Positions 2,024-19,386 of a stretch of DNA of 64,000 bases are shown here, piece by piece (the stretch's first letter is position 1; every line of letters begins with the position of its first letter). A model generated the notes under the pieces. That model worked only from the letters and a program-made list of their open reading frames with translations, was not told the origin of the DNA and searched no databases. Made by a program: the position numbers and the translations under genes. The stretch comes from an uncultured archaeon (GTDB lineage Archaea > Asgardarchaeota > Thorarchaeia > Thorarchaeales > Thorarchaeaceae): contig CAZSWP010000001.1 of NCBI GenBank assembly GCA_964610875.1, positions 1 through 64,000 of the forward strand, given 5' to 3'.

Positions 2024-2800
2024 ATGTATCACAACGTTGAAACTGAGCTTTATGCTTCCATCGCTACCCTTGACCAATTGAAGAAGCTCTATGATGTTGG
2101 CGCTGTAGATATAGTATCATATCAAAGAGAATCAGAAGCTCTTGTAAGAGAAGTGAATTCAAGAATAGAAGAACTCAGAAGATTGGGCGTTGATGTGGGT
2201 GACTTTCTAAGTTCAGAGAGAGTTCCTGACAACTTCCCTGATGCTGCATCACTCCTCAGGTTTCAAAGCAGACAACAAACCTCCTCTTCAGATGGTATGA
2301 AAATGGACCAATATTATGATAGATTAGGGCTAGCAATTCTTGATGTCGCAACATATAATGCTTCAAAAGGCCTTATGGGCCTCGCCGAACTGATTGTCGA
2401 AGTGGTGAAACGAGTTCCTGAGTTAAAATCCGTGAGCTATAATGATGTAATTGAAGCAGTAAATCGTGTTGCTGAAAATGGTCTTATCCCCGGAATCAAG
2501 ACATTACGCGGTGGAGTAAAAGTTGTAGAACTACGACCTCTTGAATTAAGGCGTGATCAAGCTGATGTTGTAAATCTGGCTGCGACAAAAGGATTTACAT
2601 CAGTTGAAGAAGTCATGGTAGAGTTGAAATGGTCTGAAGAACATGCTCGTCAAGTCTTGGGTAGTCTAGTAGACGCTGGGATGGCAGTTGCAGATATTAG
2701 GTTTAGCACTGGAGGAAGGTATTATTTTCCCGGTCTAAGAGCTAGGGATTCTCGAGCTCGGGGATATACCCAACGGTCAGATGAGCGAATGTCTGCATAG
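2024..2800 (+). CDS. Vps28 N-terminal (ESCRT-I)-like domain fused to EAP30/Vps22-Vps36 (ESCRT-II) winged-helix domains
   Basis: aa1-80 ELYASIATLDQLKKLYDVGAVDIVSYQRESEAL resembles the Vps28 N-terminal hairpin; aa95-240 DQYYDRLGLAIL...GLMGLAEL...PLELRRDQ...KGFTSV...LKWSEEHARQVLGSLVDAGMAVAD...YYFPGL aligns by eye with Snf8/EAP30; ESCRT gene context. Confidence 0.8.
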   Translation: MYHNVETELYASIATLDQLKKLYDVGAVDIVSYQRESEALVREVNSRIEELRRLGVDVGDFLSSERVPDNFPDAASLLRFQSRQQTSSSDGMKMDQYYDRLGLAILDVATYNASKGLMGLAELIVEVVKRVPELKSVSYNDVIEAVNRVAENGLIPGIKTLRGGVKVVELRPLELRRDQADVVNLAATKGFTSVEEVMVELKWSEEHARQVLGSLVDAGMAVADIRFSTGGRYYFPGLRARDSRARGYTQRSDERMSA

Positions 2801-2808
2801 AATCTGAT

Positions 2809-3537
2809 TTAGACAATTATCTTAACAGCAAATTTCTTTTTGTCCACCCATTCAGCTTGTTCTCGTTCTACAAGAACTTTGAGGACTTGTTCAATGTCCT
2901 CTTCTGGCAGACTTGCAAAGCCGATATTTGAGTGCTGTATCACAATTGTCTGGAGATCGAGTCTTAAAGTTCCTGTCTTTATGGACCACTCATAAATTTC
3001 ATCAGCCCAATCTTCTACGGGTTTCCAATAAACTCGAAGCTGGTGTCTTTTCCTATCTTTCCATATTGCAACATCATCATCCACAAGTTTTGAAGCAATT
3101 AATTTGAACGCCTTAGTCTTATTGAGGATATCTTTGAACGGATGTTCCTTTATGAAAACCGTCAGTGAGATGATATGCGCTTTATTTACTTCCGTCCACT
3201 GGAGAAGAAAATCTGCCCATTCTGAAGCCCACATCTCTTTATCTTCATCTCTTGGTGGGATTGAATACATCCATTCCGTTTCTTCAATCGTACCCCATAA
3301 CGGTGAAAGAACATCTTCCACTGCAATTTCTACAGGAGTACTATCCATTTTTTCCGTATCTGTCGTTTCTTCCTGCTCTGTTTCCCTTATCTTCACTTCT
3401 GGAATGTGAGTTTCAACTTCGGGTTCCAGCTCATATTCATCTCCGAGCTCAGGAAGGGTGACCTCTCTCCCCTCTGTCTTTTCTTTTTCAGATGTCTTGG
3501 ACTTCTCTTTTTTTCTGCGTCTTTCCCTGACGCCCAA
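2809..3537 (-). CDS. vps25: ESCRT-II subunit Vps25 homolog with charged N-terminal extension
   Basis: WMYSIPP...WADFLLQW...VYWKPVEDWADEIYEWSIKTG...FASLPEEDIEQVLKVL...AEW follows the Vps25 tandem winged-helix pattern; directly downstream of vps4. Confidence 0.85.
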   Translation of the reverse strand: MGVRERRRKKEKSKTSEKEKTEGREVTLPELGDEYELEPEVETHIPEVKIRETEQEETTDTEKMDSTPVEIAVEDVLSPLWGTIEETEWMYSIPPRDEDKEMWASEWADFLLQWTEVNKAHIISLTVFIKEHPFKDILNKTKAFKLIASKLVDDDVAIWKDRKRHQLRVYWKPVEDWADEIYEWSIKTGTLRLDLQTIVIQHSNIGFASLPEEDIEQVLKVLVEREQAEWVDKKKFAVKIIV

Positions 3538-3540
3538 GTT

Positions 3541-4776
3541 CTAGGAACCCTCCGCCCATTCGATATATTTTCTCAAATCCTCTGGTGAAGTCGCTGGACG
3601 AATATTTTCTATGGCATTAAGAAAGTCGTCACGTGAAACAGGCCGCAAATCAAAAATCTCTGTGTCATCATCCATTCTTCCTGTCCTCTGAAGGTCGCGT
3701 ATTGGTTCCATTGCAGCCTCTCTACAAATCACACTGATATCACGTCCACTATAGCCTTCACTAAGGTCTGCAAGCTCGGCGTAGTCCACATCTGGTGATA
3801 CCTCAATCTCTTCCATATGAATTTCAAAGATTCTCTCTCTTGCTTTCCTATCTGGTAGAGGAACATGAATCCGTTTTTCAAATCGTGATCTAAGAGCAAA
3901 ATCGAGCTCCCAAGGCAGGTTTGTTGCCCCAATGATGGTAATTCTCTCATCACTTCTACTTGCTAGGCCCTGTATCTCGGTGAGTAACTGTGTCTTTAGA
4001 CGTCTCTCTCCCCCAACATCATCTCCTGACCTTGCTACTCCAATAGAATCTAATTCATCAATGAAGATTATTGCAGGCTGATTTCTTCGTGCCATCTCGA
4101 AAAGCTTTCTAACAAGTCTCTCTGATTCTCCAAGCCATTTACTTACTATATTTGCAGCTGACACATTGAAGAAAGTTGCATTGACTTCAGTTGCAACAGC
4201 CTTTCCAATTAGTGTCTTACCACATCCTGCAGGGCCATAGAATAAAATACCTCTCCAAGGTTGTCTTGATTTTCCCTTGAACAATTCAGGATGCTTCATG
4301 GGTGCAAGAATGGCATCATTGATTGCTTGTTTTGCATCTTTCAAGCCTGCGACTTCATCTAATCTTACATCAGGACGTTCTGTAATTATCGTATCAGTAA
4401 TCATCTCTTGAAGACGTTTGGTATCGTCATCATCTTCTGCTTTTGTAGACGGTTCAGCTTCCACTTTATGAGTTTCAGGAGTACTATCCACTTGTGGTAT
4501 AGTTTTGAGCCCATCAACAGGGCCTCTACTCTTTTTCTTTATCCCTGAAAGATATCTGACCCGATCCACGCACTCTTCAGCACGTGCAAGATAGTGTTTC
4601 CTAACAGAAGGTAGGGCACTTGAATTTGACATCTTTATGAGAATCTTACTAGCTTTGAGATAATGTTGGCATGCTTCTTTTTTCATACCTCTCTTATCTA
4701 GCTCTATTGCCCGTTCTAGCAGATTCTTCAGACCTATATCCAATCGGTCACTGCCACTCCCTGTCATTTCACTCAC
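3541..4776 (-). CDS. vps4: Vps4 AAA+ ATPase (MIT + AAA + C-terminal helix)
   Basis: N-terminal MIT-like helices (AIELDKRG..EACQHY), Walker A GPAGCGKT, pore loop SKWLGESE, Walker B IIFIDELD, ATNLPWELD..RSRFEKR, C-terminal helix. Confidence 0.93.
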   Translation of the reverse strand: MSEMTGSGSDRLDIGLKNLLERAIELDKRGMKKEACQHYLKASKILIKMSNSSALPSVRKHYLARAEECVDRVRYLSGIKKKSRGPVDGLKTIPQVDSTPETHKVEAEPSTKAEDDDDTKRLQEMITDTIITERPDVRLDEVAGLKDAKQAINDAILAPMKHPELFKGKSRQPWRGILFYGPAGCGKTLIGKAVATEVNATFFNVSAANIVSKWLGESERLVRKLFEMARRNQPAIIFIDELDSIGVARSGDDVGGERRLKTQLLTEIQGLASRSDERITIIGATNLPWELDFALRSRFEKRIHVPLPDRKARERIFEIHMEEIEVSPDVDYAELADLSEGYSGRDISVICREAAMEPIRDLQRTGRMDDDTEIFDLRPVSRDDFLNAIENIRPATSPEDLRKYIEWAEGS

Positions 4777-4964
4777 TCATTTCTTATGGCTTTACGTTAA
4801 TAACTTAGGTGTTGCCGAGATACGTATATCATATAAACACAAGATAGATGCGCATCTTTCTCTAAGGATAAGTGTTTTTTATTAATTCAATTATTAGCAC
4901 CGAAGTATTAAATGGCAATTCGTGCTTGGACTGGTAGGGAAAAACACTTCCCGTGGTGAGTGAT

Positions 4965-5582
4965 TTGGGAATCTTCAAGAAAGCCTTTTCATGGGGTCGG
5001 AAAAAACCCGACATAAGTGAAGTTACAGGTCAGTTGCGAATAATGTCTAAACAGCTAGAACGACAACGCAACAAACTCGAAAAAGAAGAACGTGACACTA
5101 AAGCGAGAGCTATTCGCGCACGTCAAACCGGAAATCTAGAGGCATACAAAACATATGCTACAGAGATGGTTCGCTTTAGAAGAATGGCATTATCTATCGA
5201 TAGGTCGCGTCTTCAAACACTAAAGATTCTTGCTCACGTCACCCGTGCTCAAACAACTGCACAAGCGTCTCGTGCGATTGAACAAGTTGCATCAATTCTT
5301 GGAATGCTTGGTGATTCCACTGATGCAAGTAAGGTAGTTGCAAATGCAGATGAGATTGCTAGACGTCTTGAAGAATTTGAGATTGAAAGTAGCATAACTG
5401 GAGATGCATTTGATTCAACAATGGATTCACAGGTCACATCAGAGGATGTTGCAAGTGCAATGCGAGAAATTGATCGTGAAGCGGGTTTGGCAGAAGCTGA
5501 AGAAGCCACTACACAACCTGTGAGCAAGGCCGAAGAACTCGAAGAGGCTATTCGCTCTCTCGAAAAAGAACTCGGTGTATAA
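4965..5582 (+). CDS. ESCRT-III (Snf7 family, probably Vps2/24/46 class)
   Basis: N-terminal amphipathic MGIFKKAFSW (TTG start at 4965 after GGTGA), basic helical hairpin, acidic C-terminal half, MIM1-like ELEEAIRSLEKEL; divergent from vps4. Confidence 0.88.
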   Translation: MGIFKKAFSWGRKKPDISEVTGQLRIMSKQLERQRNKLEKEERDTKARAIRARQTGNLEAYKTYATEMVRFRRMALSIDRSRLQTLKILAHVTRAQTTAQASRAIEQVASILGMLGDSTDASKVVANADEIARRLEEFEIESSITGDAFDSTMDSQVTSEDVASAMREIDREAGLAEAEEATTQPVSKAEELEEAIRSLEKELGV

Positions 5583-5583
5583 T

Positions 5584-7146
5584 TTACCATCTATGCCCGC
5601 TAGAATCGCGTTTAGTACTTTCCAGTTGCTTTCTAGCTAGATAGGTGTCACGCATTAAGCCACGATATCTCCTGATGAAATCTTCGGGAACAATTCTTCT
5701 ATTTCTCATCATTTGAATTGTTTCCTCTAATGCTTCCTGCAGCGCTACGAAGTCCTGTCTAAGTTTGTAAGGATCGCTGCTCCCATTGTATGATTGGGTT
5801 GGTGGTCTTTGCCATCTGTCTGAAAGCCTATGTTTAAGTTCGTCCCTAAAACTATCCTCTCTTCGATACATGTCCTCTCTTATGAGACCCCCAACGGGTT
5901 CTCCATAGTATGGAGACCTCTCATCTCGGTATCCTGATTCAGGATGTCTTACACCTATTGGGTTCTTTGAGGAGAGCAATGCATACACAAGACTCTCTAT
6001 TTTTATCCTCACGTCACTGATATTCACATTCTGTTGTTCTATCTTCCTGACACGCTGCATATCGGATTGCACATAGCGGTCGAATTTCTTTGCTATCTCA
6101 AGGTAGTCTGGTAGAACGCGTAATGTCTGTTCACTGCAAGCAATTTTCAAATCTCCTTGTTTGAGATGAATGACCAGCTTCTTTCGTATTCTCCCATCTT
6201 CCTCGAGGGTATTAATATACATAATTGGAAAGTCGAATATGACCTCCATTTTCTTCCTTACAATACCAGTTTCAGCTAGAAATACAATTCTCTTATTTGT
6301 CACATATAATGTGCCTTGAGCTCTATCATGTCTGAGAAAATCACTGCCTGCTACTTTGATATCGGGAAATGCACATACTGGTAATTCACTCACAGATAGC
6401 TCGCACACCTCATAAAAACCAGCAAAGTGTTTCTTATAGTAGTGTAGTCCATCAAGCTGTCGATGCAGCTCTGTTAGTTCCTTGTGGGCATTACTTAATG
6501 AATCCTCTACATTCATACGATACTGTTCACCAATAGAAATGACTCGATTAGTGACACCCTCTATAAATGGGAACTGTGAAGAACTCCAACCTGGATAGTC
6601 CATAAGACCCTTTGTTTCAGCTGCAAACCTTTTCGAAACCAATTCCGCTTGATTCATAATTCTACTTTTGACAGCTTCAATCTCCTTCTGTAATGCTTCT
6701 AGTCTGTCTTCGAGCCACTTGTAATGTAGAAAGTTTGCCATCCTTAGAGATACTAGGAGTCTTTTTGCAGATACGAGTTCGTTATTGAATTCACGAAGCT
6801 TTGTATGACCGTGATGAATGGACATTATCGCCTGTCGAAGATTCTGAGCTAGGCTCCTACGTTTTTCTTCGATGCTAATCACCATCGAGGAACGACATGT
6901 TGGACATACTTCCTCCACTCGCCTGCCATTACCTAAATCCTCAGATTCACATTCAGGACATTGCTCAAATGATTCTCCTGGAGTTTGTACGCCCAGGTTG
7001 TGATGGCACTCATTGCAAACGGTATATTTTGTGGATTGACTTTCCAAACAGTCAGTGCAGAGTACTTCGCCACATTCTTCGCACATATGGGTGGCTTGAT
7101 TTGTCTGACATCTTTGACAACGCTGAATCGAGGAATCTTCTCTCAA
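5584..7146 (-). CDS. multi-zinc-finger + coiled-coil + GRAM/PH-like + steadiness-box (Vps23/Vps37 core) protein, ESCRT-I-like
   Basis: six CxxC pairs at N-terminus; long heptad region; GTLYVTNKRIVF GRAM/PH motif; C-terminal ALEETIQMMRNRRIVPEDFIRRYRGLMRDTY like the TSG101/Vps37 steadiness box; GGAGG 7 nt before TTG 7146. Confidence 0.75.
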   Translation of the reverse strand: MREDSSIQRCQRCQTNQATHMCEECGEVLCTDCLESQSTKYTVCNECHHNLGVQTPGESFEQCPECESEDLGNGRRVEEVCPTCRSSMVISIEEKRRSLAQNLRQAIMSIHHGHTKLREFNNELVSAKRLLVSLRMANFLHYKWLEDRLEALQKEIEAVKSRIMNQAELVSKRFAAETKGLMDYPGWSSSQFPFIEGVTNRVISIGEQYRMNVEDSLSNAHKELTELHRQLDGLHYYKKHFAGFYEVCELSVSELPVCAFPDIKVAGSDFLRHDRAQGTLYVTNKRIVFLAETGIVRKKMEVIFDFPIMYINTLEEDGRIRKKLVIHLKQGDLKIACSEQTLRVLPDYLEIAKKFDRYVQSDMQRVRKIEQQNVNISDVRIKIESLVYALLSSKNPIGVRHPESGYRDERSPYYGEPVGGLIREDMYRREDSFRDELKHRLSDRWQRPPTQSYNGSSDPYKLRQDFVALQEALEETIQMMRNRRIVPEDFIRRYRGLMRDTYLARKQLESTKRDSSGHRW

Positions 7147-7309
7147 CTGAAATGCCTCCAGTTTCATTTTTACTACTATTATTGCTATGAATAACCTGAG
7201 TATCACGTGGGTATTGTTCAGTTTTCAGAACCAGCGGCCGAAATATGCCCATGTCGAACTAATTATATTCAATCTCATTTGCGATTTTTATAATACTCAG
7301 GGGATATCT

Positions 7310-13461: not shown

Positions 13462-14298
13462 ATGTCAAACAAACGGTCAATACATGGTGTCTGGCTTATT
13501 GAAAGAAAGACAGGTCGCAACCTCATTTCAAAGGCCTATACTGGTATTGATATTGATATGGACCTCATTGCACCTTTCTTATCTGCTACTCACACCTTCA
13601 TTGACAAAGCATCAAATGAGAGTCTGAAAACAATTGATACTGAAACACATCGTTATGTCTGGCAAGCAAATGAACATCTTCTATTCGTCATGGTAGTTTC
13701 AAAGGCAGCTAGGATTGGACATATGCGGTTCATTCTGCAATATGCTCTGAATGAATTCATGCGAAATGAAATTCCAAAAAAGAACACAATTGAAAGTCTT
13801 CTAAAGGAGTGGCATGGTTCCCCAAAGACATTCAAACACTTTGGTAACTTTGTTGATGAATTAATCAATCAATATGAAGAAACTGACGAAGCCCTCATTG
13901 CTGGAAAATCAATGGATTGTCTTGAAGTCTATAGCCATCTCTTTCGCTCCATATTTTCAGTTGAAATAAAACCAGCTAAGAAAAAGCACCTCGTGAAAAA
14001 GGTAAAGGAAATGATAGCACCAATTCTGGAAACTTATCCGTATCTAGAAGACGTTTCTATCGATGGTAAATGTGGTGTCGATGTGCTTAGTATAGATGTC
14101 TATAATGTCAATTACGGGTCTCTAAGAGATGCCTTAGAAGAGCTCCTAAGAATCACAAGTACTGCCACTCGTGAGATTGCAGGAGATGAAGCATTCAGAA
14201 AAATGATATTCGAGTATGCGATGCCCTACGTGAAAAGAGATATCAATCGCTTGCAGACTTATGCAATTCTGGATGATGCTATCAGATATCTATTCTAA
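13462..14298 (+). CDS. longin-like domain protein with uncharacterised C-terminal helical domain
   Basis: IHGVWLIERKTGRNLISKAY...DLIAPFLSATHTF...LLFVMVV fits the beta-beta-alpha-beta-beta-beta-alpha longin pattern common in Asgard archaea. Confidence 0.6.
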   Translation: MSNKRSIHGVWLIERKTGRNLISKAYTGIDIDMDLIAPFLSATHTFIDKASNESLKTIDTETHRYVWQANEHLLFVMVVSKAARIGHMRFILQYALNEFMRNEIPKKNTIESLLKEWHGSPKTFKHFGNFVDELINQYEETDEALIAGKSMDCLEVYSHLFRSIFSVEIKPAKKKHLVKKVKEMIAPILETYPYLEDVSIDGKCGVDVLSIDVYNVNYGSLRDALEELLRITSTATREIAGDEAFRKMIFEYAMPYVKRDINRLQTYAILDDAIRYLF

Positions 14299-17644: not shown

Positions 17645-18580
17645 ATGTCAGAACAGCCTTCTATCGCTGGTGAAAACAACAAACGATTCTATCCTTCAGC
17701 GTATCTCTCTATTATTCGACCTCAGAATTGTATCATTGGGGGTCTAACCGTTCTTGCTGGAATTGCGATTGCTTATCGAACTATCCCTGTGGGATCTATC
17801 TATGACTATGGATTGATGTTTCTATTTGGATACATCACCTACTTTTTCGTAGCTGCTGGTGGGAATGTGGTCAATGATATCTTCGACATTGAGATTGATA
17901 AAATCAATAGACCTCATCGTGCATTACCAAGTGGAAAAATGACCATAAAACAAGCATGGGGCTATGTTGTTGTTCTGAGTATTCTTGGTGTATTTTTCGC
18001 GCTATTGAATGGACCTCTTGGAGCTTTGATAGTAATTGTATTCTTGTTAGTAGGGTATGCATATGCGGCAAAGGTCAAAGAACTTGGTATTGCTGGGAAT
18101 TTCATGGTTGCTTTCTCATTTGCCTTTGGTGTATTGTACGGTTCTTTTGTTTATGCGGAAAATGCGACTCCTGCTTTATTCATTCCAGTTCCATCTTGGT
18201 TATTTTTCATCACTGCTTTTATGATACTCCAAGCCCGTGAAACAATCAAAGGTGCCGAGGATGTCGAAGGTGACAGACTTAGGGATGTTCGAACAATAGC
18301 TCGAGTATATGGCTTCAAAGCTGCGGCAGCTGTTTCAACAATATTGAATCTCATTGGTGTTGTCTGCTATGTTTTGATTTGGGTCCTCGGCTATGCTAGT
18401 TGGGATCTCTGGCTACTTCTGATACTTGGAGCTGGAATAGTTTTTGGAGCTGCAATAGCACCACTCACTGGGCCGAGTAATAAGAAGAGTCTCCTAATTG
18501 GAAGTACGTTAGATAAAATTGGTGCGTTAGTTGGCTTGATTGCCTTTGTTATAATTCCTCTATATGGTGTTTTATTCTAA
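17645..18580 (+). CDS. UbiA-family prenyltransferase, likely digeranylgeranylglyceryl phosphate synthase
   Basis: NDIFDIEIDKINRPHRALPSG, RETIKGAEDVEGD, multiple TM helices. Confidence 0.88.
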   Translation: MSEQPSIAGENNKRFYPSAYLSIIRPQNCIIGGLTVLAGIAIAYRTIPVGSIYDYGLMFLFGYITYFFVAAGGNVVNDIFDIEIDKINRPHRALPSGKMTIKQAWGYVVVLSILGVFFALLNGPLGALIVIVFLLVGYAYAAKVKELGIAGNFMVAFSFAFGVLYGSFVYAENATPALFIPVPSWLFFITAFMILQARETIKGAEDVEGDRLRDVRTIARVYGFKAAAAVSTILNLIGVVCYVLIWVLGYASWDLWLLLILGAGIVFGAAIAPLTGPSNKKSLLIGSTLDKIGALVGLIAFVIIPLYGVLF

Positions 18581-19386
18581 TGCGCCTGCCAAAAAGTCCA
18601 GCCTAATACCAACATAGACGCTATTGCTATAAGTACCGCCCATCCGGTTGATGTTTCATGTGCTTCACGGATACCGAAAATCAAGAGAAAACCGATCCAT
18701 ACAAAAGAGACTGTTGTCATATAATCGATAGTTACCCACATATTAGAGTTATAAACCGCCAGAATAACTTCAGTTGATGTTGATGTCCCTAGATGATAAG
18801 TGGGCATTACTGCAAAAATAACCAATAACGCAAGCAATCTGAATAGTAGCATTGGAATCATACTATACCCGACAACTGATATCGTCTGTCCTTTTCTCCC
18901 AATGCCGCCTGTGACCTTGAAGGCTAAATGTGCAAACGCACTACCAATAATCAGATAGACCATTCCTAGAAGAATACTTGGTAGTAAACCTGCGAGTGCG
19001 GCAAAGAAATATTGAACGCCCCAAGGTGATGCAACAACGCTCATATCTTGAGTTGTTCCCAGTGTTCGGTTTATTGTCACTGTGACTATGAATTTAGATG
19101 AGATCATCAGAAAGAAACCTGCTATGACCAGTGCATTTGCGATGATTATCATGAATGGGCCTGCATAATCCGGCTTCTGTGCAATATCGCGATATGTAGA
19201 AGCAGGTCTCCTAATAACTCCCCAAAGTCTATCAAAGACTCCCATTGATCGCACCTCGGGTGCCTCTGGCCTTTTCAATATGGGTAGTATTCTCTCAAGA
19301 GTTTCCTCAGCGATTTCCATTCTGCATACTGGGCAGATTGTAGCATCTGCAGGTACTGGTGAGTCGCAGAACTCACAACGGCGCAA
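18577..19386 (-). CDS. zinc-ribbon + Yip1-domain membrane protein
   Basis: CEFC..CPVC N-terminus; GVIRRPASTYRDI, VVGYSMIP, LLIFGIREAH Yip1-like TM pattern. Confidence 0.72.
   Translation of the reverse strand: MRRCEFCDSPVPADATICPVCRMEIAEETLERILPILKRPEAPEVRSMGVFDRLWGVIRRPASTYRDIAQKPDYAGPFMIIIANALVIAGFFLMISSKFIVTVTINRTLGTTQDMSVVASPWGVQYFFAALAGLLPSILLGMVYLIIGSAFAHLAFKVTGGIGRKGQTISVVGYSMIPMLLFRLLALLVIFAVMPTYHLGTSTSTEVILAVYNSNMWVTIDYMTTVSFVWIGFLLIFGIREAHETSTGWAVLIAIASMLVLGWTFWQAH

Follow-up and report, generated by a model that had tools for sequence, protein, structure and literature searches.

A Thorarchaeal zinc-ribbon, PH and steadiness-box protein predicted to plug into the neighbouring Vps22

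An ESCRT gene cluster and a member of Znr_CC_PH_SB

The window, the whole stretch of 64,000 nucleotides of Thorarchaeal DNA analysed here, carries a cluster of five ESCRT genes: Vps22/EAP30 of ESCRT-II (2024-2800, plus strand), a predicted partner of the protein under study, with an N-terminal Vps28-type steadiness-box head encoded at about 2024-2275; Vps25, also of ESCRT-II (2809-3537, minus strand); a Vps4 AAA ATPase with a MIT domain (3541-4776, minus strand); a Snf7-family ESCRT-III gene, ESCRT-IIIA (4953-5582, plus strand); and the gene under study, which lies tail to tail with ESCRT-IIIA, its stop one base away. In several Thorarchaeal genomes (window 5582-5584; L048, L049, L051) the stops of these two genes are 0-1 base apart, so that separate terminators have no room. 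The gene under study and Vps22 are found within 6.5 kb of each other in 47 of 47 Thorarchaeal genomes in which the two share one contig, a set of kin and not of independent cases.

The gene lies on the minus strand as one uninterrupted reading frame (5584-7146; stop TAA at 5584-5586), as the sequence-only reading had called it. Two start codons come into question, TTG at 7146, giving 520 aa, and ATG at 7167, giving 527 aa; residues are numbered here from the ATG. In 65 of 78 Thorarchaeal homologues whose N-terminus is complete, 9 residues precede the first Cys, as they would from the TTG, and in 6 there are 16, as from the ATG. The TTG of that reading is the better supported start.

A homology search with the protein yields 164 matches, with 47-59% identity among the 120 matches listed, the window's own protein aside; the named close homologues are all annotated as Asgard and nearly all as Thorarchaeota. 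A search of 1.84 billion representatives returns 122 matches to the family. Of 301 Asgard genomes, 207 have a match to the family profile, as have 73 of the 76 genomes of the target's own taxonomic family. The profile finds nothing in four of four genomes of one lineage (G001 and family f3), which has a canonical cluster of UEV-Vps23, Vps28, Vps22, Vps25 and Vps4 (L059).

By profile and gene order the protein is a Thorarchaeia member of Znr_CC_PH_SB, asCOG cog.011556. For Znr_CC_PH_SB, also written Znr_PH_CC_SB, Makarova et al. (2024, mBio, PMC10936438) describe three Zn ribbons, a coiled coil, a PH domain and a steadiness box; they regard it as Asgard-only and as probably part of ESCRT-I and, reasoning from Vps36, expect its PH domain to associate with the membrane. 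All four features, namely Zn ribbons, a coiled-coil region, a PH domain and a C-terminal steadiness box, are found in the target. In Table S2 of the same paper, Lokiarchaeal cog.011556 lies between PepD-L35AE and MetE-Vps20-dehydroquinate synthase. Lokiarchaeal homologues retrieved by our family profile (E 1e-45 to 1e-50) occupy this very slot, and at one such locus (L033) the lengths of the MetE and dehydroquinate synthase genes match the table as well; membership in cog.011556 follows from profile homologues standing in the order PepD-L35AE-X-MetE-Vps20-DHQ synthase. The Lokiarchaeal proteins are 650-700 aa long and the Thorarchaeal ones about 520 aa, the difference being one of linker length, and the Thorarchaeal copies converge on ESCRT-IIIA rather than ESCRT-IIIB. 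One family member, P0216, has HEAT-like repeats behind the PH domain and a Zn ribbon at its C-terminus.

A Thorarchaeal orthologue, ThorAB25_08990|SB, was cloned and used in yeast two-hybrid (Y2H) assays by Hatano et al. (2022, Nat Commun, PMC9192718); we find that it shares with the target a five-gene order of SB, ESCRT-IIIA, Vps4, Vps25 and Vps22. The protein is not new, its family having been published in 2024; since both the domain architecture and the assignment to ESCRT-I are already in print, the value of the present analysis lies in a testable mechanism and not in discovery. What it mainly adds is a model in which the protein plugs into the neighbouring Vps22; the account of the protein in PMC10936438, in the parts that describe it, names no partner. 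A search of one literature collection for later experimental work on Znr_CC_PH_SB found none.

Domains of the protein

Pfam applied to the single protein gives nothing above cut-off (B-box E 0.004, bPH_3 0.04, Vps36_ESCRT-II 0.12) and no Vps23_core match for either the whole protein or its isolated hairpin; the domains are therefore assigned from family profiles and folds. The AlphaFold2 model has a mean pLDDT of 84.5 over the whole protein and of 95.3 for the N-terminal half alone. A UEV or E2 domain has no Pfam match in the target at E up to 1, other folds cover the whole chain, and the N-terminus is taken by a Zn module of 12 Cys, in line with the earlier statement that the UEV is absent. 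When the whole model is searched with Foldseek, DH-PH RhoGEFs rank first, at an rmsd of about 20 A and a TM of about 0.2; a RhoGEF identity was rejected, as these matches consist of a PH match plus unrelated helices.

The zinc module (6895-7119, minus strand) comprises six CxxC pairs from C17 to C91, carried on a long beta-hairpin (42-51/78-87), at nearly the limits first proposed (about 7119-6898). All 12 Cys are invariant in the Thorarchaeal alignment, and in a set of 79 Asgard homologues each reaches a conservation of 90% or more. From the long hairpin of the model we infer three Zn sites, 17/20/37/40, 29/32/88/91 and 51/54/70/73, which would form a cross-brace with an inserted ribbon. The module has a net charge of -8. 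The basic motif R(R/K)HHCR that precedes the second CxxC of FYVE domains is absent, the target reading ATHMC at this place, and Pfam FYVE is reached at E 0.86.

Next comes the "coiled coil" (residues 99-248; 6424-6873, minus strand), which in the model is an antiparallel bundle of three helices, 99-143, 150-184 and 196-248, at a pLDDT of about 95. The length of about 150 aa given by the sequence-only reading is exact, yet the region folds as three antiparallel helices and not as one long coil. Foldseek with the N-terminal model, Zn module and helices together, returns no match at E 0.001, and in a fold search (VIA) the same model matches generic bundles, with a top Z of 10.2, the Zn module being barely probed thereby. 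BAR, ALIX-V and the TRIM coiled coil were considered as kin of the helical region and none stands out; BAR domains, at Z 7.6-8.8, lie among the generic bundles and under the level that is meaningful for helical bundles. The family profile of the N-terminal half matches the RNF4 RING (E 2.4e-6), TRIM2 (3e-4) and chemoreceptors; homology to RNF4 or chemoreceptors was rejected, Cys spacing and heptad composition explaining the matches.

A resemblance to TRIM proteins (RING-B-box-coiled coil) had also been suggested. On the one hand, the first six Cys of the target keep the spacing of B-box ligands, ahead of helices, and 24 of 79 family members match the B-box at E 0.01 or better, if weakly. On the other hand, the match in the target spans only positions 4-31 of the 42 of the profile, at 17.8 bits against a cut-off of 24.1, and the His pair that closes a B-box is missing after C40; two extra putative Zn sites are present, the monomer model packs the helices of a single chain into a bundle of three, and the genome yielded no ubiquitin system. 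The resemblance is not supported.

The PH-fold domain (residues 256-364; 6076-6402, minus strand) belongs to the GRAM/bPH/GLUE group. Fold searches find the MTMR2 GRAM domain at Z 13.0 (rmsd 2.7, 107 aligned), Lam6 at Z 12.3 and the GLUE domain of EAP45 at Z 10.7 (rmsd 3.1, 97 aligned). The three motifs from which the sequence-only reading had deduced a GRAM- or GLUE-like fold, residues 283-299, 311-323 and 331-335, all lie within it. Among 78 family members, the domain matches Pfam bPH_3 in 41, GRAM in 14 and Vps36_ESCRT-II in 10, and the family profile of the domain reaches, weakly, a bacterial PH domain (3dcx, E 0.007) and the GLUE domain of yeast Vps36 (2cay, E 0.14). Given these counts and fold scores, the domain is placed in the group as a whole and not with GLUE in particular, from which it also differs in being unsplit and in having no zinc-finger insert.

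In two hairpin tips of this domain (301-306 and 325-330) Gly, hydrophobic and basic (Lys/Arg) positions are retained throughout the family; the Lys/Arg at 305, 329 and 330 is conserved in 82-90% of 78 members. With a net charge of only +2, and with the same Gly-basic hairpin occurring in bacterial PH domains, the domain need not bind lipid. PI3P is not known to be an established lipid of archaea.

Two helices that follow the PH domain (365-400; 5968-6075, minus strand) are conserved, at 69% identity among Thorarchaeal homologues. The next 65 residues (401-465; 5773-5967, minus strand) form a poorly conserved, disordered linker, with a pLDDT mostly under 50 and 15% identity among Thorarchaeal homologues. 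Its description as Pro-, Tyr- and Arg-rich fits for Arg (15%) and Tyr (8%), but its richness in Pro (9%) is moderate, not strong.

The C-terminus (466-523; 5599-5772, minus strand) is a Vps23-type steadiness box, a hairpin of helices 466-488 and 494-523 modelled at a pLDDT of about 96. Searched against the PDB, its family profile finds yeast Vps23 first (2f66_A, E 1.3e-8) and TSG101 (6vme_B) at E 4e-4. The two points on which the earlier assignment hung thus came out in its favour: the C-terminus models as a steadiness-box hairpin and the middle domain has a PH fold.

Predicted pairing with Vps22 and a natural fusion

In the headpiece of eukaryotic ESCRT-I, Vps23 pairs with Vps28. Searches for ubiquitin, E2/UEV and full Vps28 found none in the genome of the target, which is 95% complete, nor in two other Thorarchaeal genomes; the controls G001 and G207 were positive. 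The absence agrees with Hatano (PMC9192718) and with Lu et al. (10.1101/2023.07.25.550441). In the target's genome, Asgard Vps28 queries match in one place only, residues 1-90 of the window's Vps22 (E 1.8e-8; by profile 3e-10). Against the PDB the Thorarchaeal Vps22 head reaches yeast Vps28 at E 0.15 only, and its assignment to the Vps28 type comes from the Asgard queries and from Table S3 of PMC10936438, where the fusion of a Vps28 head to Vps22 was itself published in 2024.

Modelled as a complex, the hairpin of the target and the head of Vps22 reach 0.86 in each of three runs, against 0.05 for the best control; the solved Vps23-Vps28 subcomplex (2f6m) is similar to this pair, so that the value may stem from that similarity and shows likeness, not binding. 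The mark for such models is reached by 58 of 80 solved pairs and by 2 of 110 mismatched pairs. The runs share at least 97% of their contacts, with a pLDDT of at least 87 in the partner. On the target side the modelled interface consists of F497, I498, Y501, R502, M505 and Y509, of which F497, Y501 and Y509 are conserved; on the Vps22 side, where the interface residues are invariant in 31 sequences, the conserved residues are A11, A14, T15, Q18 and L19. We predict, from the model, that the steadiness box of the target would pair with the Vps28-type head of the neighbouring Vps22.

In published Y2H assays, the steadiness-box protein of Lokiarchaea is reported to interact with Vps22 and with Vps28 (PMC9192718). 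For the Thorarchaeal protein, ThorAB25_08990 SB, the text of that paper states that it may bind Vps28, yet the Thorarchaeal set given there is without Vps28; the present analysis finds a Vps28 head on Vps22. The genome of the target (G000) also encodes small helical proteins with steadiness-box-like hairpins, at C5:13285-13977 (plus strand; E 8e-8), C13:71829-72182 (minus strand; 8e-4) and C14:61243-61479 (minus strand; 0.04). The first two are possible alternative partners, and the first, with its repeated hairpins, may be the published Thorarchaeal "BAR-SB" type.

In one other Asgard genus (G053 and G044; in G061 the gene is cut by the contig end) the homologue at the same locus carries EAP30 winged helices and not the box (L053:8001-9806 and L055:1501-3318, both plus strand; proteins P0150, P0259 and P0260). 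Pfam recognises EAP30 at E 1.8e-11 and Vps36_ESCRT-II at E 1.8e-4, in a Vps36-like domain order. The fusion protein has neither hairpin, and its genomes retain a separate Vps22 and a separate Vps28. A true Vps36 orthologue was considered and rejected: the winged helices match Vps22/Snf8 at E 5e-6 versus Vps36 at E 3e-3, their nearest relative is the Vps22 of the same genome, and only three clusters exist, for which reasons the fusion is read as local. Another genome in the order of this genus has a UEV-Vps23 that matches in sequence the one published for Odinarchaeum, and the identity of that genome is presumed from the match.

The fusion speaks for joint action of the Zn-helix-PH module with the ESCRT-II core. 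The proposal of the sequence-only reading, that the target supplies the neighbouring EAP30 protein with the membrane-binding module it lacks, is supported indirectly, by the modelled hairpin pairing and by the Zn-helix-PH-EAP30 fusion.

A candidate membrane adaptor and its alternatives

To the domains, family membership, synteny and gene inventory established directly above, we add a mechanism in which lipid binding, cargo binding and pairing in vivo are inferred. The protein is probably a ubiquitin-independent, ESCRT-I-like membrane adaptor. Its PH domain, on an anionic membrane, would bind lipid head groups by way of the two hairpin tips, in which basic and hydrophobic residues are conserved; at the opposite end of the helical bundle, the zinc module would take the place of the UEV and bind cargo or a positioning protein that serves as landmark; and the steadiness box, on its flexible linker, would plug into the Vps28-type head of Vps22. 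According to the established ESCRT order and published Y2H data, Vps22 would then bind Vps25, Vps25 would recruit ESCRT-III, and Vps4 would recycle the latter. The pair of target and Vps22 would bring Zn fingers, PH domain and winged helices into one complex, the job of the single-chain Vps36. Thorarchaeia seem to be without ubiquitin, UEV-Vps23 and free Vps28, and the target is an obvious candidate for bringing ESCRT to their membranes; the modelled pairing yields a binding test with two fragments and named residues.

The protein belongs to Znr_CC_PH_SB and not to Vps23, Vps36 or TRIM. With Vps23/TSG101 it shares the C-terminal steadiness box and the predicted pairing with a Vps28-type hairpin, but a PH domain and Zn module stand in for the UEV, and a disordered linker of 65 aa between PH domain and box replaces the stalk helix. 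With Vps36/EAP45 it shares a PH fold of the GRAM/GLUE group and zinc fingers, and it would likewise act with Vps22. It has, however, no winged helices and no EAP30 match, its C-terminus being a two-helix hairpin; its PH domain is unsplit and by sequence nearer bPH_3 than GLUE, and its Zn fingers lie upstream of the helical bundle and are not inserted in the PH domain. Most likely, then, it works like an ESCRT-I scaffold that bears a Vps36-like membrane module.

An unlikely alternative to the adaptor is a CdvA-like role, in which the protein would anchor at the membrane or division site, polymerise by its own hairpins and recruit ESCRT-III directly without ESCRT-II. The hairpin of CdvA and the steadiness box are kin (PMC10936438), and in most Asgard lineages sampled the homologue converges on the ESCRT-IIIB (Vps20-like) gene and does not stand beside Vps22. 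Nevertheless, 2 of 66 family members match CdvA and 28 of 66 match Vps23_core; the Vps28-type head of the Thorarchaeal Vps22 is invariant, with the target as its nearest candidate partner; and the EAP30 fusion ties the module to ESCRT-II.

Just as improbable, or a little more so, is a protein whose box docks on Vps22 while its PH and zinc modules make no contact with lipid and either have protein ligands (a small GTPase, a longin partner or cargo) or oligomerise. Among the PH matches at Z 10-11 are many PTB domains and PH domains of RhoGEFs that bind proteins, the nearest matches in sequence are bacterial PH domains, the net charge is near neutral, and longin genes lie near several loci. The three best PH folds, however, are GRAM-type, and both tips have kept exposed hydrophobic and basic residues among Asgard lineages whose proteins are about 25% identical. 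Finally, a TRIM-like or RING-like ligase or scaffold that modifies ESCRT subunits is very improbable: the B-box, RNF4 and TRIM2 matches point to it, as do RING, CC and PH as domain labels in the legend of Fig. S8 of Hatano (PMC9192718), but the matches rest on Cys spacing, in a target that is below the B-box cut-off and lacks the closing His pair, and neither ubiquitin nor E2 was found in the target's or the two other Thorarchaeal genomes, yet the gene is nearly universal in the family.

The adaptor reading can be extended to a bolder and decidedly doubtful one, namely that in ubiquitin-free Thorarchaeia the target and Vps22 are a two-chain equivalent of Vps36, held together by a plug of the Vps23-Vps28 type, and that the PH domain of the target is the archaeal source of the eukaryotic GLUE domain. 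If so, a fusion like that of the one Asgard genus would have given rise to Vps36.

Several observations concern the surroundings of these genes. The ESCRT-IIIB gene of the target's genome is on another contig (G000 C5:30155-30643; L031). A protein of about 690 aa with EAP30 winged helices at its end (G000 C14:12818-15163, plus strand; L069:52-2127) is a second, long Vps22-like paralogue. Within 13 kb in the window lie a longin-like gene (13462-14298), a UbiA prenyltransferase gene (17645-18580) and a Zn-ribbon Yip1 gene (18577-19386); in other lineages (L047, L053), too, homologous loci have UbiA-like and longin-like genes beside them, and AspRS flanks the loci L042, L047, L048, L050 and L051.
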